DNA of 64,000 nt from Myxococcota bacterium (GCA_040902485.1 JBBDXF010000038.1:229134-293133), one strand, 5' to 3'. Shown: positions 7,608 through 62,584, numbered from the stretch's first letter. The notes: a model not told the origin generated them from the sequence alone. Numbers and translations: made by a program.

Positions 7608-7767
7608 CGGACCTGCTTCGCTTTGGTTTCTTGCGGTCGGGCGGGACCATCGGCCTCCGGGCTCGTTCGCGCTTGATCTTCCACGACAATCGCTTGACAC
7701 TCGGCGCCAACGGTCGGAGGACACGGCGACGCACGTCCCGCGGATTCGAGTCGGGGGCGCGGCAGGG

Positions 7768-8769
7768 GTGCTCGAGGCCATCGCCAAGCGCGGCGGCTCG
7801 GTCGCGAGCGTCTTGCGCAAGGCCGGACTGCGCCAGCGCGACCTCGCCGACCCCGAGCACTTCGTCGACCTCGAGAAGATGCTCGTGCTGCAAGACGAGG
7901 CCGCGCGCGAGGTCGGCGACGATACGCTCGGTCTGACCCTCGCCCTCACCTACAACCCGAGCCGTCTCGGCGTGCTCGCCTATGCGCTGTTCAATGCGCC
8001 CACGGTCGGCGTGGCGCTGCACAACCTCGAGCGCTACGCGCACACGCTGCTGCACGGCGTGCGGGTCGTGATCGAGATGCGCGGCTCGGAGTGCGTGTCC
8101 GGCTACGACATCCCGGTGGGCGACCGCGAGCTGCGGCGCCAGAACGCGGAGGGCGCGAGCGTGGTCGCGTTCGAGGTGATGCGCCGCCTGATCGGCCCCG
8201 ACTGGCGGCCCAAGCGCGTGGAGTTCGGCCACCGCCGGCCCGCCGACACGACCCAACACAGTCGCGTGTTCGGCGCCCCGCTGCGCTTCGAAGCCGAGCA
8301 CAGCTTCGCGCTGGTCTACGACCGGTCCGACGTCGATCGGGCGGTGCAGGGCGCGGACGCGGGGATCCTGCCGATCGTGCAGCGCTACCTGGACGAGCTC
8401 CCCGCGCCCGCGGCTCGCTCCGACGCCTGGCCTCGCGAGGTCCGCGCGCTGATCGCGCGCGACATCTGCAACGGTCACCCCGACATGGAGCGGATCGCGC
8501 GCGCGCTCGGCCTCAGCGGACGCACGCTGCAGCGCCGTCTGGCCGAGCGTGGGTTGGTCTGGAAGACGATGGTCGAGGAGGTCCGCCGCGAGCTCGCGCT
8601 CCGCTACCTGAAGGACGTGAGCACGTCGCTGACCGAGGTCGCCTTCCTGCTCGGCTACTCCGATCTCTCGGCGTTCGGTCGCGCCTTCCGCCGCTGGACG
8701 GGCACGACCCCGGCGGCGCAGCGCCGACGCCTGCGCTCCGAAGCGAGCGGCGCCGCGACTGTGGTATGA
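7768..8769 (+). CDS. AraC-family transcriptional regulator
   Basis: C-terminal HTH_AraC signature (ICNGHPDMERIARALGLSGRTLQRRLAERG...LTEVAFLLGYSDLSAFGRAFRRWTGTTP). N-terminal AraC-binding-like domain. GTG start chosen downstream of a GGAGGA; an ATT or other upstream start is possible. Confidence 0.8.
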   Translation: MLEAIAKRGGSVASVLRKAGLRQRDLADPEHFVDLEKMLVLQDEAAREVGDDTLGLTLALTYNPSRLGVLAYALFNAPTVGVALHNLERYAHTLLHGVRVVIEMRGSECVSGYDIPVGDRELRRQNAEGASVVAFEVMRRLIGPDWRPKRVEFGHRRPADTTQHSRVFGAPLRFEAEHSFALVYDRSDVDRAVQGADAGILPIVQRYLDELPAPAARSDAWPREVRALIARDICNGHPDMERIARALGLSGRTLQRRLAERGLVWKTMVEEVRRELALRYLKDVSTSLTEVAFLLGYSDLSAFGRAFRRWTGTTPAAQRRRLRSEASGAATVV

Positions 8770-25412: not shown

Positions 25413-25559
25413 GACGCTTGCGACTCGGGTGACGATCCGCGGAATGGCTCGGCTTCCTTTCAGCGCGGCGGAATGTACCAGAACAGGGGCATCCGCTTGA
25501 CAGCATCGAGGTCGGGTCCTACGCAGAGCCCGCAGTTTTCTGCAATAGGAGAGAGATCC

Positions 25560-25847
25560 GTGAAAGTTCGCCCCCTGCACGACCGGATCCTGGTCCGGCG
25601 TCTGGACGCCGAGACCAAGACCGCCGGCGGCATCATCATCCCCGACACCGCCAAGGAGAAACCCCAGGAAGCCAAAGTCGTGGCCGTGGGCGCCGGCAAG
25701 ATCGGCGACGACGGCAAGCGCCAGGCCATGGGCGTGAAGGCCGGGGATCGCGTCCTGTTCGGCAAGTACAGCGGCAGCGACGTGAAGATCGACGGCGACG
25801 ACCACCTGATCATCCGCGAGGAAGACGTCCTCGCGATTCTCGAATAG
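25560..25847 (+). CDS. groES: co-chaperonin GroES
   Basis: (M)[45 protein letters not shown].... GTG start with AGGAGAGAG RBS. Confidence 0.9.
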
Positions 25848-27503
<1,656 letters not shown>

Positions 27504-27530
27504 GCGCCGCGCCTACCCAAGCTCGAACGA

Positions 27531-27561
27531 ACGGGCCCCGGAGATTCCGTCTCCGGGGCCC
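27531..27561. terminator. GC-rich hairpin between convergent groEL and ackA (putative bidirectional terminator)
   Basis: Perfect inverted repeat GGGCCCCGGAGA-ttccg-TCTCCGGGGCCC. Confidence 0.55.
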
Positions 27562-27575
27562 GACTCGTTTCCGGC

Positions 27576-28718
27576 TCAGCGCGCGCGCGACGCGCGCACG
27601 GTCGCGAGCGTCTCGCGCGCGATCTGGAGCTCCTCGTCGGTGCGCACGACGAGCACGCGCACGGGCGAGCCGAGGCTCCCGATCTCGCAGGCCTCGCCCG
27701 CGCCTTCGCGGTTGCGCTGCGCGTCGAGCGCGATGCCGAGGCGCGCGAGGCCCGCGCAGGCGAGCTCGCGTACGCGCGCCGCGTTCTCGCCCACGCCCCC
27801 GGTGAAGACGAGCGCGTCCACCCGGTCGAGCACGGCGGTATAGGCGCCGATGCACTTGCGGATCCGATACGCGTAGATCTCGAGCGCGAGCCGCGCGCGC
27901 TCGTCTCCCCGCGTCTCGCGCGCGAGGATCTCGCGCACGTCGTTCGTGCCGCACAGCCCGCGCAGACCCGACTCCTGGTTCAACGTCGCCTCCAGCGCGT
28001 CCGCCGAAAGCCCCTGCGCTCGCTGCACGAAGAGGGGAACCGCGGGATCGAGATCGCCGCTGCGCGAGCCCATCACGAGGCCCTCGAGCGGGGTGAACCC
28101 CATCGACGTGTCGACGCAGCGACCGTTCTCGATCGCCGCGGCGCTCGCCCCGTTGCCGAGGTGCAGCGTGATCAGGTTGAGCGACGCGAGCGGGCGGCCG
28201 AGCAGCGCGGCGGCGCGCTCCGCCACGTAGCCGTGGGAGGTGCCGTGGAAGCCGTAGCGGCGCACGCCGAGCCGGTACCAGTCCTCGGGCACGGCGTAGC
28301 GAAAGGCGCGCGGTGCGAGCGTGTGGTGGAACGCGGTGTCGAAGACCGCGACCTGCGGCACGCCCGGATAGGCTTCGAGACAGGCCTCGATCCCGAGCAA
28401 GTTGGCCGGATTGTGAAGCGGTGCGAGCCGCGCGAGCTCGCCGATCGCGCGGCACACGCCGGCGTCGACCAGCGTGGGCTCGCGGAAGCGCTCGCCTCCG
28501 TGAACCACGCGGTGGCCGATCGCCCCGGGCGCGCCGCAGCCGCGCAGCGACACATCGATGTGTCGGAACGCTTCCGGGAGATCGCGGGCCGCGCCCTCCT
28601 CCCCGATCCGCTCGAGCAGGCCGGAGGCGAGGCGCCGCTCGCCGTCCATCGCGAGCAGGCGGTACTTCACCGACGAGCTCCCGCAGTTCACGACCAGGAC
28701 GCGGTCTGCTTCCGCCAC
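27576..28718 (-). CDS. ackA: acetate kinase
   Basis: VLVVNCGSSSVKYRL...HGTSHGYV...HLGNGASAAAIENG. Confidence 0.9.
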   Translation of the reverse strand: MAEADRVLVVNCGSSSVKYRLLAMDGERRLASGLLERIGEEGAARDLPEAFRHIDVSLRGCGAPGAIGHRVVHGGERFREPTLVDAGVCRAIGELARLAPLHNPANLLGIEACLEAYPGVPQVAVFDTAFHHTLAPRAFRYAVPEDWYRLGVRRYGFHGTSHGYVAERAAALLGRPLASLNLITLHLGNGASAAAIENGRCVDTSMGFTPLEGLVMGSRSGDLDPAVPLFVQRAQGLSADALEATLNQESGLRGLCGTNDVREILARETRGDERARLALEIYAYRIRKCIGAYTAVLDRVDALVFTGGVGENAARVRELACAGLARLGIALDAQRNREGAGEACEIGSLGSPVRVLVVRTDEELQIARETLATVRASRAR

Positions 28719-45945: not shown

Positions 45946-47208
45946 TCAGAAGTAGACGTCGATCCGGGCGAAGTAGAGCGGGTCCAGGCCCCCGAAGTTG
46001 CCCTCCCCGTCCCGGCCGCCGAAGAACTGCGCGCCGACCGAGAGCTCGACACTTTGGAGCGCCGACCAGCTGACGACCGGGAAGAGCGCCTCGCTCGGGC
46101 CCTCCCAGTCGTGGATCCAGAGCAGGTCCAGCCGCACCAGCGGCGTCAGGTCGTAGCCAAGGTTCAGGCCCGTCTGGTTGCGCGAGACGGTCACCAGCTG
46201 CGAGGTCGGGACTACACCCGCCTGCGTCAGCAGCGCGAGGCCCTGGTCCGGGGTGAGCGGCGGCAGCGCGAAGAGCGTGTCGCGCAGCGCGTCGCGCGAG
46301 ACGGTGTTGCCGTTGTAGAAGTGCTCGACCAGCGCGTACAGGCCCGCGCCGAGGTCGAAGGTGTAGTCGAGCGAGGCCACCGCTTGCGTGGTGTGGCCGC
46401 CGTGCTCGTGGAAGGTCCACGTGCCCTCGCCGCGCAGCGCTGCGTCGCCGAGGTTCGTCGCGAAGTCGAAGCCGTACACGGAGTCGGTCTGGATGCGCGC
46501 GAACATCAGCGCCGCGTCCAGGCTGCGGCGCGAGAGCTCGAGCCGCAGCGCGCTGCGGTACAGGTCGTCGCGGTCCTGCGGCGCCACGATCGCGCTCGCC
46601 CAGAGCTCGCCCGCGACGCGCACGCGCGTGACCACCGAGTCGACGCCGATGCGCTGGTCGCCTTCGAGCGCGAGCGGCGGGATCGGGTTGAACAGGTCCG
46701 TCGGGTTCCACAGCCGCGCGCGTCCGAGCGCGATGCGCTGCCGGCCCACGGTGATCTCGACGTCGTCGCCCTCGTAGCGCACCCAGCCGCGGTACAAGAG
46801 GTGCTGCCAGGTGGCGTTGTGCGTGTCGGAGAGCGTGCGGTCGAGGTCGAGCCAGGTCTCGTGGCCGCGCTCTTCGGCGAGCGAGAAGCCGAGCGACTTG
46901 CGGCCCGTGCCGGTGAAGACCTCGTTGTCGTAGGAGAGCTGCGCGGAGAAGCGCTCGCGGTAGCGGGCCTGCAGGTCGACGCGCACGCGCGTCTGCGCGA
47001 GCAGGCTCGGCGAGACGCCGAGCGAGAACGTGCCGTCGGGCGCGGGGAAGACCTCGTCCGTGCGCATTTCCCGGGTCATGGCGACGAGCTCGCGCAGGCT
47101 CGCCGTGAGGTCGAGCTTCAAGTCGCCCGTGTCGAACTCGGCCGCGCGCGCCGCGCCGGCTTCGAGCAGCGCGGCGAGCGCGAGCGCCGCGCGGGCGGCG
47201 AACCTCAC
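45946..47208 (-). CDS. outer-membrane beta-barrel protein (hypothetical)
   Basis: Signal peptide VRFAARAALALAALLEAGAARAA. Alternating amphipathic strands. C-terminal ...YFARIDVYF ends in an aromatic residue. GTG start overlaps the upstream ABC ATPase stop. Confidence 0.65.
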   Translation of the reverse strand: MRFAARAALALAALLEAGAARAAEFDTGDLKLDLTASLRELVAMTREMRTDEVFPAPDGTFSLGVSPSLLAQTRVRVDLQARYRERFSAQLSYDNEVFTGTGRKSLGFSLAEERGHETWLDLDRTLSDTHNATWQHLLYRGWVRYEGDDVEITVGRQRIALGRARLWNPTDLFNPIPPLALEGDQRIGVDSVVTRVRVAGELWASAIVAPQDRDDLYRSALRLELSRRSLDAALMFARIQTDSVYGFDFATNLGDAALRGEGTWTFHEHGGHTTQAVASLDYTFDLGAGLYALVEHFYNGNTVSRDALRDTLFALPPLTPDQGLALLTQAGVVPTSQLVTVSRNQTGLNLGYDLTPLVRLDLLWIHDWEGPSEALFPVVSWSALQSVELSVGAQFFGGRDGEGNFGGLDPLYFARIDVYF

Positions 47209-47903
47209 GGGGTGCGCCGCTCGTCGCTCGCGATGCAGCCATCGACGAGCCGCACGATGCGCCGCGCGTGCGCCATCACGCGCGGGTCGTGCGTGCTGAA
47301 CAGGAACGTGACGCCGCGGTCCTGGTTCATCTGCAGCATGAGCGCCAGCAGGTCCTCGGCGGTCTTCGAGTCGAGGTTCGCGGTCGGCTCGTCGGCCAGC
47401 ACGATCTCGGGCTCGGACGCGATGGCGCGCGCGACCGCGACCCGCTGCTGCTGGCCGCCGCTCATCTCGCCCGGGCGCTTGTGCGCGAGCTCGCCGAGCC
47501 CGAGCTCTTCCAGGAACCGCAGCGCGCGCGCACGGCGCTCCGCGCGCGGCACGCCCTGCAGCAGCAGCACGAACTCGACGTTCTCCACCGCCGAGAGCAC
47601 CGGCACCAGGTTGTAGGACTGGAACACGAAGCCGAGCTTGCGCAGGCGCAGCTCCGCGCGCGCGGCCTCGCCCATGTCGGTGGTGTCCTCGCCGTCGACC
47701 AGGATCCGGCCCTCGGTCGGCCGGTCGAGCGTGCCGAGCAGGTTCAAGAGCGTCGTCTTGCCCGAGCCCGAAGGCCCGCACAGCGCCGAGAACTCGCCGC
47801 CCTCGATCCCGATCGACACGGCGTCGAGCGCGCGCGTCTCGAGCGCGCCCGCGCGGTAGATCTTCGTCGCCTCGACCGCTGCCAGGATGGGGCGCGCCAA
47901 CAT
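47205..47903 (-). CDS. ABC transporter ATP-binding protein (LolD/MacB-ATPase-like)
   Basis: Walker A GPSGSGKTT. Signature LSGGQQQRVAVARA. Walker B ILLADEP. Confidence 0.9.
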   Translation of the reverse strand: MLARPILAAVEATKIYRAGALETRALDAVSIGIEGGEFSALCGPSGSGKTTLLNLLGTLDRPTEGRILVDGEDTTDMGEAARAELRLRKLGFVFQSYNLVPVLSAVENVEFVLLLQGVPRAERRARALRFLEELGLGELAHKRPGEMSGGQQQRVAVARAIASEPEIVLADEPTANLDSKTAEDLLALMLQMNQDRGVTFLFSTHDPRVMAHARRIVRLVDGCIASDERRTP

Positions 47904-47909
47904 CGTCTC

Positions 47910-49157
47910 CTAAATGTGTCGGATCGCTTCGGCCGGGCGCAGGCGCACGGCCTTCCAGGCCGGCCAGAGCGCGGCCAGCACCGCGGTGATCAGCGCGACC
48001 ACGACCGGCAGGATCAGGTCGCGCCGCTCGATGCGCGTGTACACGGTCGTGCCGATGCCGAACTCGGTCAGGCCGTCGGCGAAGCGGGTCAGGTCGATGC
48101 CGACCTCGCCGAGCCAGAGCACGATCGGAACCCCGACCGCCAGCCCGATCAGCGTCCCGGCCACCGTCATCACGATCGACTCGAGCAGCACCAGCGCCAG
48201 CAGCCGGCTCGACTGCAGGCCGAGCGCGCGCAGCATGCCGAACTCGCGGATGCGCTCGTAGACCATCATCAAGAGCGCGTTCGCGATCCCGAACGCCATC
48301 GCCACGAAGACCGCGCCGTAGATGACCCAGGTCATGTCGGCCATCAGGCCGAGCAGCGCCGCCATGCGCGGCTCGCGCTCCTTCCAGGTCAGCACGTCGA
48401 GCGCGGCGTCGGGCAACGCGGCGGCGAGCGCGGCCCGGGCCGTGGCGTGCAGCTCCGGCAGGCGGTCGGGATCGTCGAGCAGCACCGCGACCTCGGTCAC
48501 GCGGTCGGGCACGGACAGGAGCCGCTGCGCGTCCTCGAGGCGCAGGTACGCGTGGCTGCGGTCGAACTCCGACGACGAGCTGCGGAAGATGCCCGACACG
48601 CGGAACGCGCCGAGCCCGACCTCGCCGGGCGCGTGCACCACCACCTTGTCGCCGAGCTTCACGCGCAGCCGCTCGGCCATGGCCGCGCCGATGGCGATGC
48701 CCGGAAGGCGCCGCGAGCCGGTCGTCACGAGCGGCACCGGCAGCTTGCCCTCGACCAGCGCGCGAGAGAGGATCGAGACGCGTTGCTCGCGCAGCGGATC
48801 GACGCCGACCAGCACGACCCGCGAGCTGCGCCGCGCGCTCTGCAGCAGGCCGTCGCCGACCAGGCGCGGAGAAGCGTGCGCGCCGGGGAAGCGCTCCAGC
48901 GCCTCGACGATCGCGCGCCCGCTGTCGGGCAGGTTGCGCTGCACGTCGGGGTTCTTCTGGTAGCCCGACGCGAGCACGGCCAGGTGCCCGAGCCGCGTCG
49001 AGACGGCGTTGTCGACCATCTGGCGCACGAGCCCGTTGCTCCAGCCGACCAGCAGGAGACACGCCGAGAGCCCGACCGTGATCGCGACCAGCACGACGGC
49101 GCTGCGCCGCCAGCCGCGCAGCAGGTTCCGCCAGGCGATCACGAACAGCGTCGTCAC
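47910..49157 (-). CDS. ABC transporter permease, FtsX-like (LolC/E-type)
   Basis: N-terminal TM, large periplasmic domain, then three C-terminal TM helices of FtsX topology (…LRALGLQSSRLLALVLLESIVMTVAG…). Confidence 0.8.
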   Translation of the reverse strand: MTTLFVIAWRNLLRGWRRSAVVLVAITVGLSACLLLVGWSNGLVRQMVDNAVSTRLGHLAVLASGYQKNPDVQRNLPDSGRAIVEALERFPGAHASPRLVGDGLLQSARRSSRVVLVGVDPLREQRVSILSRALVEGKLPVPLVTTGSRRLPGIAIGAAMAERLRVKLGDKVVVHAPGEVGLGAFRVSGIFRSSSSEFDRSHAYLRLEDAQRLLSVPDRVTEVAVLLDDPDRLPELHATARAALAAALPDAALDVLTWKEREPRMAALLGLMADMTWVIYGAVFVAMAFGIANALLMMVYERIREFGMLRALGLQSSRLLALVLLESIVMTVAGTLIGLAVGVPIVLWLGEVGIDLTRFADGLTEFGIGTTVYTRIERRDLILPVVVALITAVLAALWPAWKAVRLRPAEAIRHI

Positions 49158-49159
49158 GT

Positions 49160-50401
49160 TCAGGTCGCCCGCAGCGCGTCGACGGGCCGGCCGCGACTCG
49201 CGCGGATGGCCGGCGGGATGGCGGCGACGAGGCCCACCGCAACCAGCAGCAGTGGCAGCGTCACGAGCTGATTGCGGCCGAGCGCGAACATGATCAGCGG
49301 CTCCAGGTCGAACAGCTCGATCGACGCGCGCGCGCCCTCGCCGGTGATCGGGATCGGGTGCTGCGCGAGCCAGAGCACGAGCGGAATGCCGATCGCGAAG
49401 CCGATCGCGATCCCGAGCAGGGTCAGCTGCACGGATTCGATCAGCACCAGCGCGAACACCGCGCGCGGGCGCAGCCCCAGCGCGCGCAGCACGCCGAACT
49501 CGCGCACGCGCTCGAACACCGACATCAGGATCGTGTTCAGGAGCCCGAAGCCGACCACCACGATCAGCACCGCATTGCCGATCCAGTTGCCGACGTCGTC
49601 GAGCATCATGAACTGCAGCAGGTCGGGCATGAGCTCCTGCCAGGGCAACACCTCGTAGTCTGCGCCGGGGAAGTCGGCGTCGAGCTCGCGGCCCACGCTC
49701 GCCAGACTGCCGCTCTCGGGCAGGAACACCGCGACGTGCGAAACGGCGCTGCCCGCCTCGAGGAACGCGCGCAGCTCGTCCAGGTCGACCAGTGCGCCGA
49801 AGCCGTCGAACTCGTCGTCGCCGACCGCGAACGTGCCGACCACCGTGAAGCGATCGGCCGACTGCGAGCCGAAGGCGTCGGCGGAGAGCACGATCACCGC
49901 GTCGCCGAGCGAGACGCCGAGGTTTCTCGCGAGCAGTGCGCCGAGCGTGATCTCGCGCGCGCCGTTCGCGGGCTCCGCCATGCGGCCGGCCTCGATCGAG
50001 CCGACCAGCTTCGACAGGCGCCGCTCGCGCGCCAGGTCGATGCCGAACAGCTGCACGCCGCGGCCGGTCGCGTCGTCGCGGTCGGCCGAGATCAGCCCCC
50101 AGGCCTCGAGCCGCGGCGCCCAGCCCTCCGCGCCGCTGAGCGCGTCGAGCTTGCGCTCCGCGGCGGCGTCGAGCGGCAGCGCGTAGTCGAGCGTGCGGTA
50201 CTCGCGGTAGCCGGCCAGGCTCACCTGGAAGTGGCCGGGATAGAGCCTCACCGCGTGCTCGATCCAGCGCTCGTGACTGCCGTCGCCCACGGCCAGGTTC
50301 AGCATCGAGAGCACGGTCGCGAACACGCCCGCCGCGACCGTGAGCGCGGTGCGGCGCTTGTTGCGGCCGAGGTTCCGCCAGGCGAGCCGCAACAGCATCA
50401 T
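49160..50401 (-). CDS. ABC transporter permease, FtsX-like (second copy)
   Basis: MMLLRLAWRNLGRNKRRTALTVAAGVFATVLSM... C-terminal FtsX helices (…LRALGLRPRAVFALVLIESVQLTLLG…). Its start overlaps the stop of the LolA-like gene (ATGA). Confidence 0.8.
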   Translation of the reverse strand: MMLLRLAWRNLGRNKRRTALTVAAGVFATVLSMLNLAVGDGSHERWIEHAVRLYPGHFQVSLAGYREYRTLDYALPLDAAAERKLDALSGAEGWAPRLEAWGLISADRDDATGRGVQLFGIDLARERRLSKLVGSIEAGRMAEPANGAREITLGALLARNLGVSLGDAVIVLSADAFGSQSADRFTVVGTFAVGDDEFDGFGALVDLDELRAFLEAGSAVSHVAVFLPESGSLASVGRELDADFPGADYEVLPWQELMPDLLQFMMLDDVGNWIGNAVLIVVVGFGLLNTILMSVFERVREFGVLRALGLRPRAVFALVLIESVQLTLLGIAIGFAIGIPLVLWLAQHPIPITGEGARASIELFDLEPLIMFALGRNQLVTLPLLLVAVGLVAAIPPAIRASRGRPVDALRAT

Positions 50402-51186
50402 CAGCGCGCGGCCTCGGACTGGCGCAGGTTCTTCTGCGTGAAGATCGCGTCGTCGAGCTTCACGTCGAAGGCGGCTTCCTCGAGCACGACGCGCGTCGAG
50501 TGGCCGGGCTTGTCGTTCGGCAGCATCAGCCACAGGTGCGGCAGCGGCCGGCCCGCCACCGTGCGCACGTCCGAGAAGCGCAGCTCGCGGATCGCCTCGA
50601 AGCGGCCCGGCTCGGGCTCGTCGTAGTACACGAACAGGATCGGCGCGAGCCGCTCCTTCTCGATCCACAGCTCCATGCGCGCCCAGACCACGGGCGCCTC
50701 CGGCAAGGGCGTGAGCTCGATGCCCAGCGCCGCGACGCCGTCGATCGCCTTCTCGTCGAGCAGCTTCGGCTCGTAGTCCTTCTGCAGCGACGACTCGCGC
50801 GCGAGGTCGTCGTTGGTGAAGTCGCTGCCCATCCACGGCTGCAGCATCATCGACGGCGGAATGCGCATGGCGCGCTCGACCTTCGGCAGCCAGGTCCAGA
50901 ACGCGTCGTGGTCGCGCAGGAAGCCGGTGCCCTTGTCCTTGGGCGGCTCGAGCACGCGCGAGAAGCTGCGATCGCCGAGCTGGTCGTCCCAGCTGCGGAT
51001 CACCAGCTCGCGCGTCCAGCGCGGCGTGGTGATGGTCATGCGCAGCTTCATCTCGCTGGTGTTGCCGCGCAGCGCGTCCTCGGCGCGGCGCACGAGCTCC
51101 TTCACGTCGAGCTCCTCCGCATGCGGCGCGGAGCTCGTGAAGCCGAGCAGCACGAGCACGAGCCCGACGACACCGATCCGCGTCAT
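50401..51186 (-). CDS. periplasmic outer-membrane-lipoprotein-sorting (LolA-like) protein
   Basis: Signal peptide MTRIGVVGLVLVLLGFTSSAPHA. ~260-aa beta-rich protein of the LolA-like family commonly paired with FtsX permeases. Confidence 0.6.
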   Translation of the reverse strand: MTRIGVVGLVLVLLGFTSSAPHAEELDVKELVRRAEDALRGNTSEMKLRMTITTPRWTRELVIRSWDDQLGDRSFSRVLEPPKDKGTGFLRDHDAFWTWLPKVERAMRIPPSMMLQPWMGSDFTNDDLARESSLQKDYEPKLLDEKAIDGVAALGIELTPLPEAPVVWARMELWIEKERLAPILFVYYDEPEPGRFEAIRELRFSDVRTVAGRPLPHLWLMLPNDKPGHSTRVVLEEAAFDVKLDDAIFTQKNLRQSEAAR

Positions 51187-51779
51187 GCGCTGATCCCCCG
51201 CCAAAAGACCTCCTCCGCCGCGCGAAACGGCCCCTCCAGGTCGAGCTCGGGCCGCATCAGCTTGGCGAGCATCAAGCCGTCGATGGTGGCGTCGATCAGC
51301 AGCCCCACGTCCGCCGCCGCGACCGGCCGCAGCGTTCCGTCCGCCACGCCGCGCGCGATCTGCTTTTCCACGGCGGCCTTCCACACCCCGTGCGCGCGGT
51401 CGGCCCGCACGCGGATCTCGTCGTCGCGCGCGCTCTGCGCGATGTACTCGAGCGCGAGCTTGAAGAACGGCAGGCCGGCGTCGAACTGCTGGCGCACGCG
51501 CGCGAACACCTCGTGCAGGGCGCTGCGCCAGTCCGGGGCGTCGGCCACGGCCTCGAGCTCCTGCAGCGCGCGCTCCGAGAAGCGGTCGACCAGCGCCAGG
51601 AAGAGCTCGCGCTTGCCCGCGAAGTGCCAGTAGATCGCGCCCTTGGAGAGCCCGGCCCGGGCCGCGATGTCGTCGACCGAGGTCTCGTGGTAGCCGCGGG
51701 CCGCGAAGCCGGCGAGCGCCGCGTCGAGGATCTCGCCCCGGCTGATCTCGGGCTTCCTGCGCGCCGCTCGCCGCGCCAT
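51183..51779 (-). CDS. TetR-family transcriptional regulator
   Basis: N-terminal HTH ILDAALAGFAARGYHETSVDDIAARAGLSKGAIYWHF. Divergent from ileS. Confidence 0.85.
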   Translation of the reverse strand: MARRAARRKPEISRGEILDAALAGFAARGYHETSVDDIAARAGLSKGAIYWHFAGKRELFLALVDRFSERALQELEAVADAPDWRSALHEVFARVRQQFDAGLPFFKLALEYIAQSARDDEIRVRADRAHGVWKAAVEKQIARGVADGTLRPVAAADVGLLIDATIDGLMLAKLMRPELDLEGPFRAAEEVFWRGISA

Positions 51780-51917
51780 CGCTCCCCGCTCCGTAACCGA
51801 CTGACCAGTCGGTACGCTACCGGGCCGATTCGCCGCCGGCAAGCCCCGGCCGGTATGTCCCGAGGATCGCAGGACTTTTTTGCGCGGCCCCGGACCCGCC
51901 GGTAGCATCCCCCGGTC

Positions 51918-55097
<3,180 letters not shown>

Positions 55098-55117
55098 GGA
55101 CGCTCAGCCGGTCACGC

Positions 55118-58100
55118 TCAGGGCTTGCCCGAGTCCGACGGTCCCTTGGCCTCGCCCGCGGCCGGCGGGCGCTCGACGGCGGCCGCGCGTTTCGCGTGCT
55201 CGTCGAGCAGGCGCACGACCGGCGCGTACTTCCGCTCCTCCGCGAGGCTGCGCGCGGTGACTCCGCCGCGACCCGTGACCGCCGGATTCGCACCGCGCAG
55301 CAGGAGATACTCGACCACCTCTGTGTAGCCGCCCATCGCTGCGACCATCAGCGGAGTGAGTGAGCGCTCGTCGCGCGCCTCGATGTCAGCCCCGCCCTTC
55401 TCCACCAGGAGCGCGGTGCTGGGCAGGTTTCCGGCGGCCGCGGAGAAGGTGAGCGCGGTCATGCCGTCGCGGTCGCGCATGTCCGGATCGACCTTCATCG
55501 CCAGCAGGACCGCCACGACGTCGGCGTGGTCGTTGCTGGCCGCGGCCATCAGCGGCGTGCCGCCCAGATCGTTGGCCTCGTTGCCGTCGGCACCCGCCCG
55601 GAGGAGCTCGACGACGATCTCCGTCTTGCCGGCGAGCGCAGCGTAGAGCAGCGCGTTCCAGCCTCGGAAGTCGCGAGCCGAGGCCGGCACGCCGCGGCCG
55701 AGCACCTGCTTCACCTCGTCGAGATTGCCGCTGCGCGCGGCCTCGATCAGCTCGCGTTCGTCGCGCATCGCCGCGCGGCTCGCACCGCCGGGCAAGCTGT
55801 CGCCATCGCCCTCGGCGAGCTTCGCCCAGGCGGCCGCGCTCGCCCGGTCGATCGTCGCGAACACGCGCGCCATGCCCCGATCGTAGGCCTCCATCAGCGC
55901 GGTCCGACCCTTGAGATCACGCGCGAGCGGATCGACCTTCGCCTCCACCAGCAGCTCGACCACCCGAACGCTGCCGCTGCGCGCGGCCAGGTGCAGCGCG
56001 GTCTGACCGGCGGAATTCGCCGCGTTCGGATCGGCGCCCGAGGACAGCAGGCGCGAGGCGATCTCGGACTGACCCGCGGCCGCCGCGCGCATCAGCGCCG
56101 TCCAGCCGTCGCGATCGGCGGTGTTCGGCTGCGCGCCGACTTCGAGCAGGAGCGTGACGAGCGCGTAGTCGCCGCGCCGCGCCGCCTGCTGCAGCGCCGT
56201 CTCACCCGCGAGCGACGCCGTGCTCGGGTCGGCGCCCTTCGCGATCAGCTTCCGCGCGATTTCGGTCTGGCTCGACGCCGCGGCCTGCAGCAGCGCGCTG
56301 CGGCCCGATGGGTCGCGCAGGGCCGGGTCCGCTCCGCGCGCGAGCAGCAGGTCGACCATCGGCGCGTGCCCCTTGCCGACCGCGTACATGAGCGGCGTCT
56401 GACCGTTGCGGCTGGCCGCGTCGACGTTGGCACCCGCGCCCGCGAGCAGCTCGACCAGCTCGAGGTGGCCGTTCGCGACGGCGGCGCGCAGCGCGGTGGC
56501 GCCCCCGTCGTCCTTGATCTCGAGCTCGGCGCCGGCTTCGACCAGCAGCTTCGCACTGTTCAGACGGCCCGCCGACGCCGCGAACATCAGCGCGGTGCGG
56601 CCGTCGGCATTGCGCGCGTCGACGCTCGCCCCGCCCTTCAGCTCGGCGACCACGGTGGCGTCGTTGCCGCGCCAGGCCGCGTCCATCAGGATCGTGTGCT
56701 CGCCGCGCGACGCGCTGGTGCGCGCGAACGCGGGATCGCTCTCCGCCTGCTGCAGCAGCGCGGCGACGCGCGAGAAGCCGGCGCGCGCGGCCAGCTCGCG
56801 AGCCGTCGAGCCGCTCGCGTCGGTCTTCTTCGCGTCGGCGCCGGCCGAGAGCAGGAACTTCACCACCTCGAGGTTGCCCGTGGTCGCGCCGGCCATCAGC
56901 GGCGTCAGTCGCTGCTTGCCGAGCTCGAAGTCGAGGTTGGCGCCCGCCGTGGTGAGCTGCTTCAGCGCCTTCAGCTGTCCGCGCGCGGCGGCGTGCGCGA
57001 GCGCGTTCGCTCCGGTCCTGTCGGCGAGCTCGAGGTTCGCGCCCGCCTCCACCAGCTGGGTGATCACGTCGTTGCGATTGCCGCGCACCGCGAGGATCAG
57101 CGCGGTCGTGCCCTCGGCGTCCTGCTCGTCGAGCTCCGCGCCCGCCTCGATCAGCGAGCGCACGAAGTTCGCGAGGCCCATCGAGGCGCCGAACATCAGC
57201 GCCGTGCGGCCGTCCTCGCCGCGCATCGTCAGCATCGCGCTGCCGATGGTCGGATCGCCGGATCCGACGCCGGAGAACACGCGCGCCACCGCGTCGTGTC
57301 TCGCCTCGAGCGCGATCACGAGCGGCGTCAGCCCGAGGGCATTGCGCCGCTTGATGTCTCCGCCCGCGTCGACCAGGCGCAGGGCGATCTCCGGATCGCC
57401 TCGGCTCGCGGCCAGGTGCAGCGGGGTATCACCGTTCGCCGACGGCTGGTCGGGATCGGCGCCGGCGACGACCAGCTCGTCGACCTGGTCGCGGTCGCCG
57501 TTGCGCACGGCGTAGAACAGCGCGGTAGCCCCGTCCGACGCGGCCGCGTTCACTTCGGCTTTGGCCTCGATCAGCTCGGTCACGACCTTCCTGCGCCTCT
57601 GCTTGGCGGCGACCACCAGCGCGGTGGCGCCGTCGCGGCGTCGCATCTCGGTGTCGGCGCCGGCCTTGGCGAGCTCGCGCACCACGTCCACGTGCCCTTC
57701 GATCGCTGCCAGCATCAGCGCCGTCGAGCCGCCGCGATCGGTGAGATCGAGCGACGCTTTGCGCCCGACCAGCACGTAGACGACCGCGGCGCTGCCGCGC
57801 ACGGCCGCCTTCATCAGCGCGGTCTCTCCACTCGCGTCGGCTGCGTCGATCGGCGCGCCCGCGTCGAGCAACGCCTGCGCGAGCGTCGAGTCGTCGTGCG
57901 AGGCCGCCAGCTGGAGCGCCGTGTCGCCCTGCTCGCTGCGCGAGGTCGGGCTCGCCCCCCGCTCCAGCAGCAGCTTGACCGTCTCGGTCTGGCCGGTGGA
58001 CGCAGCGTGCATGAGCGCGGTCCAGCCGTCCCGGTCGGCCGAGTCCACCGGAACCTCGCGCGACAGCAGCGCCCCGACCGCCAGGCGGTCGCCCACGCGG

Positions 58101-58231
58101 GCCGCTTCGCGCAGCAGCTCCGCCTCCCGCTCCAGGTTTTCCGCGGGATCCGGCAGGTTCTGCGCATGGCCGGGCCGCGCCGCCGCGAGCAGCAGCATGA
58201 GCGAGCCGGCGACCAGCAGGAGGCGACGCAT
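55118..58231 (-). CDS. secreted ankyrin-repeat protein (~30 ANK repeats, 1037 aa)
   Basis: Signal peptide MRRLLLVAGSLMLLLAAARPGHA. Continuous 33-aa ANK repeats (DGWTALMHAASTGQTETVKLLLERGA...). Same strand as, and 52 bp downstream of, the PqiC-like gene. Confidence 0.85.
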   Translation of the reverse strand: MRRLLLVAGSLMLLLAAARPGHAQNLPDPAENLEREAELLREAARVGDRLAVGALLSREVPVDSADRDGWTALMHAASTGQTETVKLLLERGASPTSRSEQGDTALQLAASHDDSTLAQALLDAGAPIDAADASGETALMKAAVRGSAAVVYVLVGRKASLDLTDRGGSTALMLAAIEGHVDVVRELAKAGADTEMRRRDGATALVVAAKQRRRKVVTELIEAKAEVNAAASDGATALFYAVRNGDRDQVDELVVAGADPDQPSANGDTPLHLAASRGDPEIALRLVDAGGDIKRRNALGLTPLVIALEARHDAVARVFSGVGSGDPTIGSAMLTMRGEDGRTALMFGASMGLANFVRSLIEAGAELDEQDAEGTTALILAVRGNRNDVITQLVEAGANLELADRTGANALAHAAARGQLKALKQLTTAGANLDFELGKQRLTPLMAGATTGNLEVVKFLLSAGADAKKTDASGSTARELAARAGFSRVAALLQQAESDPAFARTSASRGEHTILMDAAWRGNDATVVAELKGGASVDARNADGRTALMFAASAGRLNSAKLLVEAGAELEIKDDGGATALRAAVANGHLELVELLAGAGANVDAASRNGQTPLMYAVGKGHAPMVDLLLARGADPALRDPSGRSALLQAAASSQTEIARKLIAKGADPSTASLAGETALQQAARRGDYALVTLLLEVGAQPNTADRDGWTALMRAAAAGQSEIASRLLSSGADPNAANSAGQTALHLAARSGSVRVVELLVEAKVDPLARDLKGRTALMEAYDRGMARVFATIDRASAAAWAKLAEGDGDSLPGGASRAAMRDERELIEAARSGNLDEVKQVLGRGVPASARDFRGWNALLYAALAGKTEIVVELLRAGADGNEANDLGGTPLMAAASNDHADVVAVLLAMKVDPDMRDRDGMTALTFSAAAGNLPSTALLVEKGGADIEARDERSLTPLMVAAMGGYTEVVEYLLLRGANPAVTGRGGVTARSLAEERKYAPVVRLLDEHAKRAAAVERPPAAGEAKGPSDSGKP

Positions 58232-58282
58232 GCGCTCAGAGTATCGGCCGGGCCGGAGTCCCGCTGCCGGCCGGCCCTGGCC

Positions 58283-58876
58283 CTAGCGGGGCGCTTCACC
58301 GAGCGCGCTCGCGGCCGCCGCGCCGGCCTGGTCGATCGCTTCGTCGAGTGCCTCGCCGAGCGCGCGTGCGACCGCGTCCGGGGTGTCGCCCGCGACGGGC
58401 CGCCTGGTGATGAACGTGCGATCGAGCAGCGCCTGCTGGGACGCGTCGGCCAGGCGCACCGCGAGCGCGACCACGCCCTCGTGCGCCGGCTCGAGCACGT
58501 CGTCGAAGGTGAGCAGCTCGACGGTAAGCGAGGGCGCGTCCGGCCGGGTCGCGCGGCGCAGGCCGCGCTTCTCGAACAGCTCGTGCGCGAGGCGCGCCTC
58601 GACGTAGCTCGCCGGTGGCTGCGTCCAGCGCAAGAGATCGTAGAAGCCGACCTCGACGCCGCGCCGCCACACGATGCGCCGGCGCAGGTAGTCGGCCGCC
58701 GTCACGCGGCGCAGGCGGAGCTCCGGAGCGCTCGCGCTGATCGACACGGCGTTGCCGTTCGCGGCGCTCGCCGAAGGCGCGAAGCCCGGCGAGAAGTAGC
58801 GCGGCTCGGCGGGCTGGCGCGGCGCCAGACACGCGGCCAGCAGGAGAGCTGCGGCGATCCCCAGGCGACCACTCAC
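58283..58876 (-). CDS. lipoprotein, PqiC/YmbA-like ABC-transport auxiliary component
   Basis: Lipobox LLAACLAP. ~190-aa DUF330-like protein immediately after an MCE gene. Confidence 0.65.
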   Translation of the reverse strand: MSGRLGIAAALLLAACLAPRQPAEPRYFSPGFAPSASAANGNAVSISASAPELRLRRVTAADYLRRRIVWRRGVEVGFYDLLRWTQPPASYVEARLAHELFEKRGLRRATRPDAPSLTVELLTFDDVLEPAHEGVVALAVRLADASQQALLDRTFITRRPVAGDTPDAVARALGEALDEAIDQAGAAAASALGEAPR

Positions 58877-59796
58877 GGACGCGGGCTTTCCTCGTTCGCG
58901 CGAACGGCGCGGCCGCGCACGATCGACGCCGGATCGCGCTCCAGGTAGTCGGCCAGCGTGCGCACCGACTCGAGCGTGTCCTGGAGCTCCGTCAAGCTGC
59001 TGCGCGCGTCCTCGGCCAGCGCGCTGCCGTCGGCGGTGAGCGCCGCGAACGCCGACGCCGCGTCGCGCACCGCGCCGGTCGTCTCGGCGAGCTGCGCGTC
59101 GCGCACGGCCGCGTCGAGCGAGCGCGCGGTCTGCTCGAACTGCGCGCCGGTGCGCTCGTACTGCGCGAGCACCTGCGAGACCGCGCCGCCCTCCGCGACC
59201 AGCGGCCGGATCGTCGCCTCGAAGTTCTCCACCACCGTCGTGAGGCGCGCGAGCGTCTCGCTCGCCTGCACGGTCAGCATCGGCAGCTTCATGCCCACCT
59301 CGACCACGGCCTCCTCGATGCTCTTCAGCGTCGACGGCGTCGCGGGCATGTAGTCCGGACCCGGATCGAAGGGCAGCTCTTGCACCGGGAAGCGCTTGGG
59401 ATCGAAGTAGTCGACCAGCAGGAACTTGACGCCGGTGATGCCGGCCGAGGCTACCTGGATGCGCAGCGGCGTGCGGGTCTCCTCCATCTCGCGCAGCACC
59501 GGACCCTTGCCCGCCAGGCCGAGCTTCTGCAGCACGTCCTCGTAGACCTGGCTCGTCACCTTCACGTGTCGCAGGTCGGGCGCGATCGTGATCGAAGAGA
59601 CCGAGCCCACGGGCACGCCGCGAAACTTCAGCGCCGCGCCGACCTCGAGGCCCTGCACCGACTCGTCGAAGTAGGTGACGATCGTGCGCGTCTTGCGGTT
59701 CCAGTCACCCGCGCCCAGCCAGACCAGCGCCGCGAAGGCGAGCGCGAGACCGCCCAGCACGAATGCCCCGAGCTTCCAGTAGTTGGTCGAGTTCAC
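58873..59796 (-). CDS. MCE (MlaD/PqiB-like) family protein
   Basis: N-terminal TM WKLGAFVLGGLALAFAALVWL. MCE domain ...GLEVGAALKFRGVPVGSVSSI.... Confidence 0.8.
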   Translation of the reverse strand: MNSTNYWKLGAFVLGGLALAFAALVWLGAGDWNRKTRTIVTYFDESVQGLEVGAALKFRGVPVGSVSSITIAPDLRHVKVTSQVYEDVLQKLGLAGKGPVLREMEETRTPLRIQVASAGITGVKFLLVDYFDPKRFPVQELPFDPGPDYMPATPSTLKSIEEAVVEVGMKLPMLTVQASETLARLTTVVENFEATIRPLVAEGGAVSQVLAQYERTGAQFEQTARSLDAAVRDAQLAETTGAVRDAASAFAALTADGSALAEDARSSLTELQDTLESVRTLADYLERDPASIVRGRAVRANEESPRP

Positions 59797-60551
59797 GCTC
59801 TCACTCCGCCTTCCGGCACCCGGCGATTGAAGAAGGCCGCGACGGTCGGATGGGTGCTGTGATCGCGCAGCTCGCGCGGGTCGCCCAGAGCGATCATACC
59901 TTTCGCTTCGCGGTCGAGCATCACGCAGCGGTGTCCGATCGCGAAGATGCTGGCCAGCTCGTGGGTCACGATCACCAGCGTGGTGCCGAGATTGCGCGAG
60001 AGCGTCAGGATCAGCTCGTCGAGCTCGACCGAGGTGATCGGGTCGAGGCCCGCGCCGGGCTCGTCCAGGAACACCAGCGGCGGGTCGAGCGCGAGCGCGC
60101 GCGCGATGCCCGCGCGCTTCTTCATGCCGCCCGAGAGCTCCGCGGGCAGGTGGTTCTCGAAGCCGCCCAGGCCCACCAGCCGCAGCTTGCTGCGCACCAC
60201 CTCGGCGACGTCGGCGCGCGAGAGGTCGGTCCAGGTCTCGAGCGGCAGCGCCACGTTCTGGCCCAGCGTCATCGAGCCGAACAGCGCGCCGGCCTGGAAC
60301 AGCACGCCGAAGCCCGGCATGCCGCTGCCCACGCGCGGCGGCTCGCCGTCGACCCGGATCTCGCCCTGCAGGGGCTCGTCGAAGCCGATCATGTGGCGCA
60401 TCAGCGTCGACTTGCCGCAGCCGCTGCCGCCCAGGATCACGAAGATCTCCCCGCGCATGACCTCGAAATCGAGCTGCTCGAGCAGCACGCGATCGCCGAA
60501 GCCGATCGCGACGTTCGACACCGTGATGTGTGGCTCAGAGGTCCCAGGCAT
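59793..60551 (-). CDS. ABC transporter ATP-binding protein (MlaF-like)
   Basis: Walker A GGSGCGKST. Signature LSGGMKKRAGIARA. Walker B LVFLDEP. Confidence 0.9.
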   Translation of the reverse strand: MPGTSEPHITVSNVAIGFGDRVLLEQLDFEVMRGEIFVILGGSGCGKSTLMRHMIGFDEPLQGEIRVDGEPPRVGSGMPGFGVLFQAGALFGSMTLGQNVALPLETWTDLSRADVAEVVRSKLRLVGLGGFENHLPAELSGGMKKRAGIARALALDPPLVFLDEPGAGLDPITSVELDELILTLSRNLGTTLVIVTHELASIFAIGHRCVMLDREAKGMIALGDPRELRDHSTHPTVAAFFNRRVPEGGVRA

Positions 60552-61707
60552 GGAACAGCACCGTGAAGGCCGAGTCGATCACGACCAGGAAGAACAGCGA
60601 GCTCACCACCGCCGAGGTGGTCGAGCGGCCGACGCCCTCGGCGCCGCCGCGCGTCGAGAGACCCCACTGGCAAGCGACCAGCGCGATCGCCAGGCCGAAC
60701 GCGACCGACTTCACCAGGCCCGAGCACACGTACCAGACGTCGAGCGCGTTGTGGGTCTGCCGCGCCCAGGCGGTGAACGGAACGTCGAGCGAGGCGACGC
60801 CCACCACCGCGCCGCCGGCGATCGCGAACGCGTCGCCGAGCAGCGTCAGGATCGGCAGCATCAGGGCGAGCGCGAGGATGCGCGGCAGCACCAGGTAGCG
60901 GTAGGGATCGAGCCCGATCGTGCGCAGGGCGTCGACCTCGTCGGACACGCGCATGCTGCCGAGCTCGGCGGCGAACGCCGCGCCGGAGCGTCCGGCCGCG
61001 ACCACCGCCACCATCAGCGGGCCGAGCTCGCGCGTCACGCCGATCGCGACGCCGTCCGCGACGAAGATGTCGGCGCCGTACTTGTGCAGCGTGATCGCGC
61101 CCTGGAAGGCGGTGACCAGGCCCACCAGGAACGTGATCAGGCCGATGATCGGCAGCGCGTCCGCGCCGGTGCGCTCCATGATGCGCCAGACCGAGCGCCA
61201 CGGCACGCTGCGCGGATCGCGCGCCGCGCGGCCGAACGCGACCACCGTGCTGCCGGTGAAGTCCAGGACCTGACGCGTGAACTCCCACAGCTCGAAGGTC
61301 GCGCGGCCGGCCTGCTCGAGCACCCCGGGTGCGCGCGGCGCGGGGCGCGCCTCTATCCCGCGCGGGGTGGTCGCGACCAGCTCCAGGATCTCGCGCACGC
61401 GGCCGTCCGCGCCCGCGAGCTCGGCCTCGGAGCCGCGCGCGCGCAGCTCGTCGCACAGCCCGAGCACGAGCGAGGCGGCCGCTGCGTCCAGCGAGCGCAG
61501 ACCCGCGAGATCGATGCGCACGCTCGCTGCCGGCGGCTCGAGCAGCTCGCGCATGCGCGCGAGCGCCGCCGGCGCGTCGCGCACCGCCAGGCGTCCGGAA
61601 AGGCGGAGCTCCGCGCGACCCGCCCGCGGATCGCTGCGCTCGATGCCGAAGCTCGACTCGTGCCTGGTCGCGTCTCTCACGCTGTTTCGCGTTTCCCCGA
61701 CGCGCAA
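60535..61707 (-). CDS. MlaE-like ABC permease with N-terminal STAS (MlaB-like) domain
   Basis: N-terminal ~110-aa STAS-like region (…RIDLAGLRSLDAAAASLVLGLCDELRARG…) fused to an MlaE/DUF140 permease (…ITFLVGLVTAFQGAITLHKYGADIFVADGVAIGVTRELGPLMVAVVAAGRSGAAFAAELGSM…). Confidence 0.75.
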   Translation of the reverse strand: MRVGETRNSVRDATRHESSFGIERSDPRAGRAELRLSGRLAVRDAPAALARMRELLEPPAASVRIDLAGLRSLDAAAASLVLGLCDELRARGSEAELAGADGRVREILELVATTPRGIEARPAPRAPGVLEQAGRATFELWEFTRQVLDFTGSTVVAFGRAARDPRSVPWRSVWRIMERTGADALPIIGLITFLVGLVTAFQGAITLHKYGADIFVADGVAIGVTRELGPLMVAVVAAGRSGAAFAAELGSMRVSDEVDALRTIGLDPYRYLVLPRILALALMLPILTLLGDAFAIAGGAVVGVASLDVPFTAWARQTHNALDVWYVCSGLVKSVAFGLAIALVACQWGLSTRGGAEGVGRSTTSAVVSSLFFLVVIDSAFTVLFHAWDL

Positions 61708-61747
61708 GGTAGCATGGCCCGGCGCTTAGCCGCGAAGGAGTGAGCCG

Positions 61748-62584
61748 ATGTCGGAACGCCTGTCGGAACGCCTGTCGGAACGAGTACAGATCGATCTCAA
61801 GGATGGCGTCGCGGACGTGCGCATGATCCGCACCGACAAAATGAACGCGATCGACAATGCGATGTTCGAGGCGCTGGTCGAGGCAGGCAAGCTGCTGTGC
61901 GCCGATCCGTCCGTGCGCGCGGTCGTGCTCTCGGGCGAGGGCCGCGCCTTCTGCGCTGGCCTCGACATGACGAGCTTCGCGGCCATGGCCGGCCCCCCGC
62001 GTTCGGGCGAGGCGCCTGTGCAGAACCTGTTCGAGCGCGGCCCGAGCGGCGCCAACCGCGCGCAGCTGGCCGCCTGGATCTGGCAGGAAGTGCCCGTACC
62101 GGTGATCGCTGCCGTACACGGCGTGGCGTATGGCGGCGGCCTGCAGATCGCGCTCGGCGCCGACCTGCGCATCGTCGCGCCCGACGCGCGCATGTCCGTC
62201 ATGGAAGTGAAGTGGGGCCTGATCCCCGACATGTCCGCGAGCCAGACACTGCGCCGGCTGGTGCCGATCGACGTGGCGATGGAGCTGACCTTCACCGGCC
62301 GCGTGTTCTCGGGCACCGAGGCGAAGGAGCTCGGCCTCGCGACGCGGCTCTCCGAGACCCCGCTCCAGGACGCGCTGGCGCTGGCCGCCGACATCGCCAG
62401 CAAGAGCCCCGACGCGATCCGCGCCGCCAAGCGCCTGTTCGAGGAGAGCTGGCACGCGCCGACCCCGGACGGCCTGCGCCTCGAAGAGGGCCTGCAGCGC
62501 AGCCTGATCGGCAAGCCCAACCAGGTCGAGTCGGTGAAGGCGAACTTCGAGAAGCGCGCGGCGAGGTTTCAGGATCGTTCCTAG
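61748..62584 (+). CDS. enoyl-CoA hydratase/isomerase (crotonase) family protein
   Basis: ...AVVLSGEGRAFCAGLDM...AAVHGVAYGGGLQIALGADLRIV.... The N-terminus carries a SERL-SERL-SER tandem repeat. Confidence 0.85.
   Translation: MSERLSERLSERVQIDLKDGVADVRMIRTDKMNAIDNAMFEALVEAGKLLCADPSVRAVVLSGEGRAFCAGLDMTSFAAMAGPPRSGEAPVQNLFERGPSGANRAQLAAWIWQEVPVPVIAAVHGVAYGGGLQIALGADLRIVAPDARMSVMEVKWGLIPDMSASQTLRRLVPIDVAMELTFTGRVFSGTEAKELGLATRLSETPLQDALALAADIASKSPDAIRAAKRLFEESWHAPTPDGLRLEEGLQRSLIGKPNQVESVKANFEKRAARFQDRS
61751..61785 (+). repeat. 12-nt tandem repeat GTCGGAACGCCT x ~2.8 inside the crotonase N-terminus
   Basis: tcggaacgcctgtcggaacgcctgtcggaacga encodes SERLSERLSER. Confidence 0.7.

Follow-up and report, generated by a model that had tools for sequence, protein, structure and literature searches.

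In a 64,000-nucleotide stretch of DNA from a Myxococcota bacterium (GCA_040902485.1 JBBDXF010000038.1:229134-293133, hereafter the window), a four-gene lipid-transport (MCE) cassette is followed on the minus strand by a gene for a protein made of ankyrin repeats (ANK) with an apparent signal peptide. Comparison with related loci showed that the ANK gene keeps this position throughout one uncultured Myxococcota lineage and is missing behind the same cassette in more distant relatives. The kind of cassette is already known; judged by sequence, the new element is the cassette with an appended, conserved ANK gene whose product is apparently exported, and the functional link between the two is drawn from position. 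ANK is a lineage-specific add-on and may be an accessory of the transporter, but MCE systems in general do not include it. We tentatively favour the view that the ANK protein is a periplasmic protein-binding scaffold or adaptor recruited late to a self-sufficient MCE bridge.

The MCE cassette and the ANK protein encoded behind it

As shown in Table 1, open reading frame (ORF) calls, together with Pfam and NCBIfam matches, placed five consecutive co-directional genes on the minus strand between 55118 and 61707, from a STAS-MlaE permease to the ANK protein. This layout is the one described in a first-pass annotation of the same DNA. The four cassette genes overlap one another by 17, 4 and 4 nt in 5' to 3' order, and the ANK gene alone is set off by a spacer, which measured 51 nt (58232-58282) instead of the 52 bp given in that annotation.

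The permease matched PF02405 (MlaE) with E 5e-74 and reached 229.5 bits against TIGR00056 (cutoff 212.2). Its translation probably starts at the in-frame GTG at 61680 rather than at the listed TTG at 61707, and alignments with its orthologs begin only at residue 8-22. The ATPase matched ABC_tran (E 2e-26), with MlaF as its second-best NCBIfam match at 152 bits, under the equivalog cutoff of 441. For the MCE protein, phmmer gave a full-length match (E 1.2e-5) to PDB chain 13hr_I, the 312-aa Mce/MlaD chain of a PA3213-PA3214 entry, and the alignment was collinear (residues 13-297 against 16-305). In its AlphaFold2 (AF2) monomer model, of pLDDT 67, a helix at residues 6-32 is followed by strands at 36-130 and helices at 156-200, 205-236 and 241-287, and the top Foldseek matches were Mce1 subunits, MlaD and PqiB. 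The MCE protein is thus predicted to consist of an N-terminal transmembrane helix, one MCE beta-barrel and three long C-terminal helices (the 'needle'), and it ends in a conserved tail of the form ...ERDPxxxVRGRA-x8-PRP. The fourth protein, PqiC-like, scored 53.3 bits against PF03886 (cutoff 26) and carries a lipobox, LAAC, with Cys16. As a single sequence it had no match in the PDB, and a profile of 25 orthologs was needed; this profile found 13hr_A and 13hq_A (PA3214 entries, ABC-type transport auxiliary lipoprotein) with E 3.5e-10, followed by XCC0632 (2iqi, E 1.8e-7) and Escherichia coli PqiC (8q2c, E 1.5e-4).

Assignment to the Mla pathway proper was considered and rejected, as the models for MlaD (TIGR04430, 30.8 bits against a cutoff of 135) and MlaB (NF033618, 18.4 against 90) fell far short, and the cluster holds no MlaC or MlaA gene, with a PqiC-like lipoprotein in their place. 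Because the Mla equivalog models stay under their cutoffs, we assign the first four genes, by sequence, to the trans-envelope MCE transporters of the PA3211-PA3214 type. In Pseudomonas aeruginosa, PA3211-PA3214 form a four-gene operon to which the Xanthomonas XCC0632 operon is homologous (Giacometti et al., J Biol Chem 2026; PMC13631591). There the MCE hexamer builds a needle of ~170 A, and its C-terminal peptide docks into a groove of an octameric outer-membrane lipoprotein ring, so that six tails face eight grooves (PMC13631591). The substrate, transport direction and outer-membrane partners of PqiC-type MCE systems are unknown, and the same authors consider that PqiC-like systems may have partners yet to be found (PMC13631591).

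The cassette in the window shares with PA3211-PA3214 the gene order of MlaE-type permease, ATPase, single-MCE needle protein of ~310 aa and PqiC-like lipoprotein. It differs in the N-terminal STAS domain of its permease, a domain unmentioned in PMC13631591, in the fifth gene present in this clade and in its low sequence identity, and it is known here from sequence and a monomer model. With E. coli Mla (MlaFEDB with MlaC and MlaA) it has in common an MlaE/MlaF-type ABC engine with a STAS (MlaB-like) module, but not the equivalog scores or the MlaC and MlaA genes noted above. With E. coli PqiABC it shares the needle and the PqiC-type lipoprotein, whereas it has one MCE domain where PqiB has three, and no PqiA.

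The ANK protein begins with Sec-type signal features recognised by eye, laid out as MRR, a hydrophobic core and GHA before Q. A matching start (MR[RP], hydrophobic core, small-x-A) recurs in all 12 orthologs, in agreement with the signal peptide proposed in the first-pass annotation. Tat export was rejected, since several orthologs read MRP and so lack the RR pair, and the signal combines a short length with a very hydrophobic core. Behind the signal, a repeat hidden Markov model (HMM) derived from the protein itself scored 27 repeats with a 33-residue period, in addition to caps, and Pfam gave 580.7 bits for Ank_2 and 442.1 for Ank. The earlier description of an ANK array therefore stands, with its count of about 30 repeats corrected to ~29 including caps, arranged in four arrays of 9, 5, 9 and 6. 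The protein contains no cysteine. When its N and C halves are aligned in register they are 37% identical, idiosyncratic breaks included, and the blastp E-value between them is 6e-70 in this register against 1.7e-40 when shifted out of it. The protein is therefore a tandem duplication of a module of 9 + 5/6 repeats.

The membrane-binding domains of eukaryotic ankyrins contain 24 repeats in one long continuous solenoid. The ANK protein resembles them in being a long ANK solenoid, and ankyrin-1 is among its best generic sequence matches; it differs in having no death, ZU5 or UPA domains, in its apparent export, in its bacterial codon usage and in its four arrays instead of one. In the literature searched, no paper linked ankyrin repeats with MCE, Mla or Pqi systems.

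Distribution and conservation of the ANK gene

Loci were compared through orthologs of the MCE protein, covering 80 genome loci, 13 metagenome loci and three further contigs, in which the proteins of the window were located by tblastn. The four-gene cassette was found in essentially all of them (80/80 related genome loci), spread over Myxococcota, Binatia and Planctomycetota. Where the MCE protein was 58-96% identical and the contig long enough, the ANK gene lay directly 3' of the PqiC-like gene and co-directional with it in 13/13 loci (the window, L002-L004, L083, L084, L086-L089, L094, L095 and L097), across spacers ranging from -1 to 131 nt. The synteny in relatives that the first-pass annotation had proposed to check holds at MCE identities of at least 58%, whereas the 77 more distant conserved cassettes are without ANK. 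That annotation had held that a lack of the ANK gene in otherwise conserved MCE clusters would speak against a link; this lack is seen outside the clade and not within it.

Because these 77 distant cassettes do without ANK, the cassette is taken as the conserved unit and the ANK gene as lineage-specific. On this distribution the gene appears to be a single insertion in one uncultured Myxococcota lineage, and an ancestral gene lost elsewhere is less likely. The G+C content at third codon positions (GC3) of the ANK gene, 0.92, is like that of its neighbours (0.64 at the first and second positions, GC1/2), and because GC3 matches there is no sign of a recent transfer. Among the ANK-less loci, the gene after the cassette was convergent in 39 of the 64 that could be assessed and otherwise heterogeneous (glycosyltransferase, ABC exporter, MFS, protease and kinase, by eye). 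A fifth gene shared by the ANK-less cassettes was also considered, and none was found.

On its other side, the ANK gene is followed directly by IleS in the window, L002, L003 and L086. In L088 and L095 a DUF2167-like gene has been inserted between the two, L089 has an insertion of another gene downstream of ANK, and L004 has no IleS. Although the downstream side of ANK was remodelled in this way, the junction between the PqiC-like and ANK genes is intact in all 13 loci. The gene inserted in L088 (7805-8749) and L095 (14736-15638), two separate sublineages, is co-directional and encodes a signal-peptide protein of ~300 aa; it is recorded as DUF2167 in L095 and is absent from the window.

Eight full-length ANK orthologs were recovered, all of 1031-1045 aa, collinear, 51-66% identical and almost free of indels. 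Repeat number and register are thus under constraint, and the alignments show purifying selection on length and register; such stability is the opposite of a fast-churning repeat array. The identities of ANK and the PqiC-like lipoprotein track each other from locus to locus (64/67, 66/64, 61/61, 54/54 and 52/50%). ANK has diverged at about the rate of the PqiC-like lipoprotein; MlaE, MlaF, MCE and IleS have changed more slowly.

In designed ankyrins, the randomised positions mark the concave binding face, and these positions were used here as a proxy for that face. Groove-facing positions were more conserved than the exposed back face (0.57 against 0.45, Wilcoxon p 0.02, n=22 repeats), most strongly in arrays 3-4. 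This points modestly to a conserved ligand in the groove. Array 3 is the best-conserved part of the protein, for example NGQTPLMYAVGKGH at residue 609.

The last two residues are [RKPV]P in each of the 8 full-length ANK orthologs. MCE proteins of the ANK-positive clade close without exception with ...RGRA-x8-9-[PGN][RVE]P, while the MCE tails of ANK-less relatives are variable. A terminal Pro is common in this genome (9/44 called genes). The Pro ending shared by the MCE and ANK proteins is thus a lead only, and the clade-wide pattern is one evolutionary event.

Searches of protein libraries, made with the full ANK protein, with a less generic 146-aa segment and exhaustively against representatives, returned only generic or giant ANK proteins of at most 40% identity and one fragment. 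Long ANK proteins of this ~1030-aa family seem to be absent from large protein indexes or masked in them. The ANK ortholog of L095 is called as a gene on its ENA/NCBI contig.

Expression signals and possible roles of the ANK protein

The spacer ahead of the ANK gene holds a G+C-rich hairpin that folds no better than shuffled sequences (z 0.07); a consensus scan found no promoter or terminator in it, and it had no Rfam match. It also carries the motif CCGATAC at 58241-58247, which puts CGATAC 9 nt ahead of the ANK ATG. This offset is common to 10/13 loci (8 nt in L095 and L097), although the spacers are otherwise unalignable, and L083 has GGATAAT instead of the motif. Across ~220 kb of related DNA, all seven matches to CGATAC-N9-[AG]TG precede ANK genes, while CCGATAC alone occurs in the window about as often as expected by chance. 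TACTCT stands 6 nt before the ATG in the window and its nearest relatives, a placement whose geometry would be like that of a -10 element for a leaderless mRNA. The conserved, ANK-specific motif might act as an internal promoter or as a signal in translation.

Elsewhere in the clade the spacer looks different. In L002, L003, L004, L094, L095 and L097, TGGTAGCCT follows soon after the PqiC stop (within the first 10-60 nt); motifs of this type, C(T/C)TTG(G/T)TAG(C/G)CT, have the form TGnTAnnnT, which resembles an extended -10 element, and are missing in the subgroup to which the window belongs. The window does have a comparable TGCTACCTT on the minus strand at 61706-61714, ahead of the first cassette gene, where it overlaps the TTG listed as the start. 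In L086 and L087 both spacer and motif are lost, and the PqiC stop overlaps the ANK start (TGATG). Overlap of stop and start is an arrangement associated with translational coupling, and in the lineage of L086 and L087 it argues for operon membership of ANK. The in-frame 'RY' before the ATG is not taken as coding, since in the window the ANK ATG shares its frame with the PqiC stop and the stretch from one to the other contains no start codon. On our reading, the ANK gene is probably transcribed with the cassette and additionally under a control element of its own.

For the accessory scaffold that we tentatively favour, we infer that ANK resides in the periplasm, is co-expressed with the MCE system and touches it physically. 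The ANK protein would be expressed together or in step with the transporter, exported by Sec as a soluble protein, and would serve as a periplasmic scaffold or adaptor that binds proteins. The conserved concave groove, above all that of the C-terminal half, would hold a periplasmic part of the MCE machine, either the MCE needle or its C-terminal tail or the PqiC-like ring; alternatively, the groove might tether another envelope protein to the machine. Since all other lineages have a working four-gene system that lacks ANK, it is not a core subunit. A scaffold of this kind had been proposed in the first-pass annotation: the signal peptide, the shared direction of the genes and the junction kept in 13/13 loci speak for it, and what does not hold is any extension to MCE systems in general. 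If the link is true, a large, conserved, exported scaffold fixed to the end of the operon would be a candidate accessory factor of a PqiC-type MCE system.

Almost as likely is that ANK is an independent neighbour, a periplasmic protein with its own expression and with a partner that has no part in lipid transport. It might, for example, be an inhibitor or immunity protein, or else a scaffold serving the envelope at large. On this view the gene entered between the MCE operon and IleS in the ancestor of the clade and was held there by synteny inertia. Several observations favour this and weigh against a scaffold of the MCE machine. The ANK gene was found downstream of the cassette in 0/77 loci with MCE identity of at most 47%, and L006 is a syntenic empty site in which ECH (enoyl-CoA hydratase), the cassette and IleS are kept, with no room left between the PqiC-like gene and IleS. 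Conservation within the clade extends to ECH and, in most loci, to IleS, so the adjacency may be general synteny. ANK alone has a spacer, and the specific motif in it keeps a constant distance to the ATG, which would suit its own, possibly leaderless, promoter or control site; the extended -10-like TGGTAGCCT stands right after the PqiC stop in the six loci named above. A further point against the scaffold is that the functional link between ANK and MCE is drawn entirely from position, and contact between the two has no structure-based or co-evolution support: the AF2 single-sequence model of ANK shows helix pairs throughout, but with pLDDT 57 it is too poor to use, and the groove-conservation test is modest in size and significance. 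The protein-library searches missed the query itself as well as the orthologs found by synteny, and are uninformative on ANK away from MCE cassettes.

Known periplasmic ANK proteins, moreover, target enzymes and not transporters (PMC4686830). Bd3460 of Bdellovibrio is a periplasmic signal-peptide ANK protein of 23 kDa with a few repeats, which inhibits DD-endopeptidases in self-protection and whose gene lies directly after that of its partner Bd3459 (Lambert et al. 2015; PMC4686830). The ANK protein of the window shows comparable signal features, and Bd3460 is a precedent for a gene placed just after that of a periplasmic partner. The ANK protein is, however, ~5x larger, internally duplicated and encoded beside transporter genes instead of a secreted enzyme. 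A small inhibitor of the Bd3460 type was accordingly rejected for this 1037-aa protein, whose neighbours are transporter subunits and IleS.

Against an independent neighbour, no candidate enzyme partner is encoded nearby, the neighbours in the window being IleS, TetR and a MacB-like ABC system. Rearrangements on the other side of ANK have left its junction with the cassette intact, the spacers are short, and in L086 and L087 stop and start overlap. Should the link prove to be positional only, the four-gene cassette would still be defined as a conserved unit across Myxococcota, Binatia and Planctomycetota, the ANK gene would be dated as a single late insertion, and an unusually stable, internally duplicated bacterial ANK protein of ~29 repeats would be documented.

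It is improbable that ANK goes beyond an accessory role and is a true fifth periplasmic subunit of the MCE system, its groove binding the clade-specific MCE tail ...RGRA-x8-PRP or its own [RK]P tail filling grooves of the PqiC ring. In the latter arrangement, the ANK tail would take the grooves of the octameric ring left free by the six MCE tails. If this were true, a bacterial lipid-transport bridge would for the first time have a component made of ankyrin repeats, and ANK would offer a handle on how PqiC-type systems engage outer-membrane partners.

The first-pass annotation had also considered an exported effector, which would cross the outer membrane after Sec export, for example by a type II system, and act on prey or eukaryotic cells. 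Myxococcota are often predatory, and symbionts and pathogens use ANK effectors on eukaryotic cells. The signal peptide and the eukaryote-like repeat type fit this view, as does a partial NCBIfam similarity to Legionella Ank effectors, which reflects the repeats only. All effector models, however, stayed far under their cutoffs; a Dot/Icm (type IV) Ank effector was rejected, the best model, AnkY, reaching 279 bits against a cutoff of 600 with matches that cover only the repeats. Typical effector families do not show such strict one-to-one orthology or so fixed a repeat number and register. Among the ORFs checked in the 64-kb window no secretion-system genes were found, and inspection of the ANK C-terminus revealed no recognisable outer-membrane sorting signal. 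A secreted effector is therefore unlikely, and less likely than either an accessory scaffold or an independent neighbour.

That the ANK frame is an artefact, either spurious, as many long ORFs in high-GC DNA are, or a decaying pseudogene, as its three pieces in L097 (ERZ25039551 contig_50383) might suggest, is scarcely credible, since its contrast between GC3 and GC1/2 is that of real genes here, its Pfam match has E 1e-178, eight orthologs are intact and collinear, and in L097 GatB, MlaE and the ATPase are split as well, which looks like a frameshift-rich assembly and not like real pseudogenes.

Coordinates of the features and other parts of the window

The features of the locus are collected in Table 1. 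The G+C content of the window is ~71%.

Table 1 Genes, spacer and protein segments at the MCE-ANK locus, in window coordinates
Feature	Position	Strand	Remarks
Enoyl-CoA hydratase (ECH) gene	61748-62584		Divergent, upstream of cassette
STAS-MlaE permease, 390 aa	60535-61707	-	Pfam STAS/STAS_2 at residues 34-111, MlaE at 174-384
ABC ATPase, MlaF-like, 252 aa	59793-60551	-	Pfam ABC_tran; overlaps permease gene by 17 nt and MCE gene by 4 nt
MCE/MlaD protein, 307 aa	58873-59796	-	Pfam MlaD
PqiC-like lipoprotein, 197 aa	58283-58876	-	Pfam ABC_trans_aux PF03886; last gene of conserved cassette
PqiC-ANK spacer, 51 nt	58232-58282	-	PqiC stop to ANK ATG
ANK protein, 1037 aa	55118-58231	-	Ank_2, Ank, Ank_4 and related models, E 1e-178
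Putative signal peptide, residues 1-23	58163-58231	-	MRRLLLVAGSLMLLLAAARPGHA followed by Q; type I, no lipobox Cys, very hydrophobic; by eye
ANK array 1, residues 40-331	57239-58114	-	N-cap + 8 repeats; self-derived repeat HMM, Pfam
ANK array 2, residues 340-504	56720-57214	-	5 repeats, the last a G-x-TAR-x-LA C-cap
ANK array 3, residues 513-806	55814-56695	-	N-cap + 8 repeats; duplicate of array 1
ANK array 4, residues 828-1011	55199-55750	-	N-cap + 5 repeats; duplicate of array 2
C-terminal tail of ANK	55118-55198	-	Low-complexity Pro/Ala/Lys, ends ...GKP + stop
IleS gene	51918-55097	+	Convergent with ANK; stops 20 nt apart

Between the convergent stops of ANK and IleS, at 55085-55117, lies a perfect 6-bp hairpin (GCTGAG-CGTC-CTCAGC), which includes the IleS stop codon. 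It has no T-tract and may be a bidirectional terminator of the high-GC type.

Next to IleS, the minus strand at 47205-51800 encodes a TetR protein (51183-51800), two MacB-type FtsX permeases (47910-50836) and an ABC ATPase (47205-47903). Beyond IleS in L095 there are genes for a TetR protein, a LolA-like (TP_0789-like) protein and a MacB/FtsX protein, and in L002 and L003 the same place holds a TetR-like gene and then further ORFs (by eye). The TetR/MacB region beside IleS appears to be a second conserved envelope-related ABC cluster.

At the other end of the window, the plus strand at 963-5657 encodes a 1564-aa protein with multiple TPR repeats and a C-terminal Ser/Thr kinase domain. It is followed at 5800-8769, also on the plus strand, by a 989-aa ORF in which AraC-type arabinose-binding and helix-turn-helix domains are found only in the last 330 residues. 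The AT skew is strongly positive at 24001-28000 and 48001-50000 (0.31, 0.20, 0.20) and near zero elsewhere.

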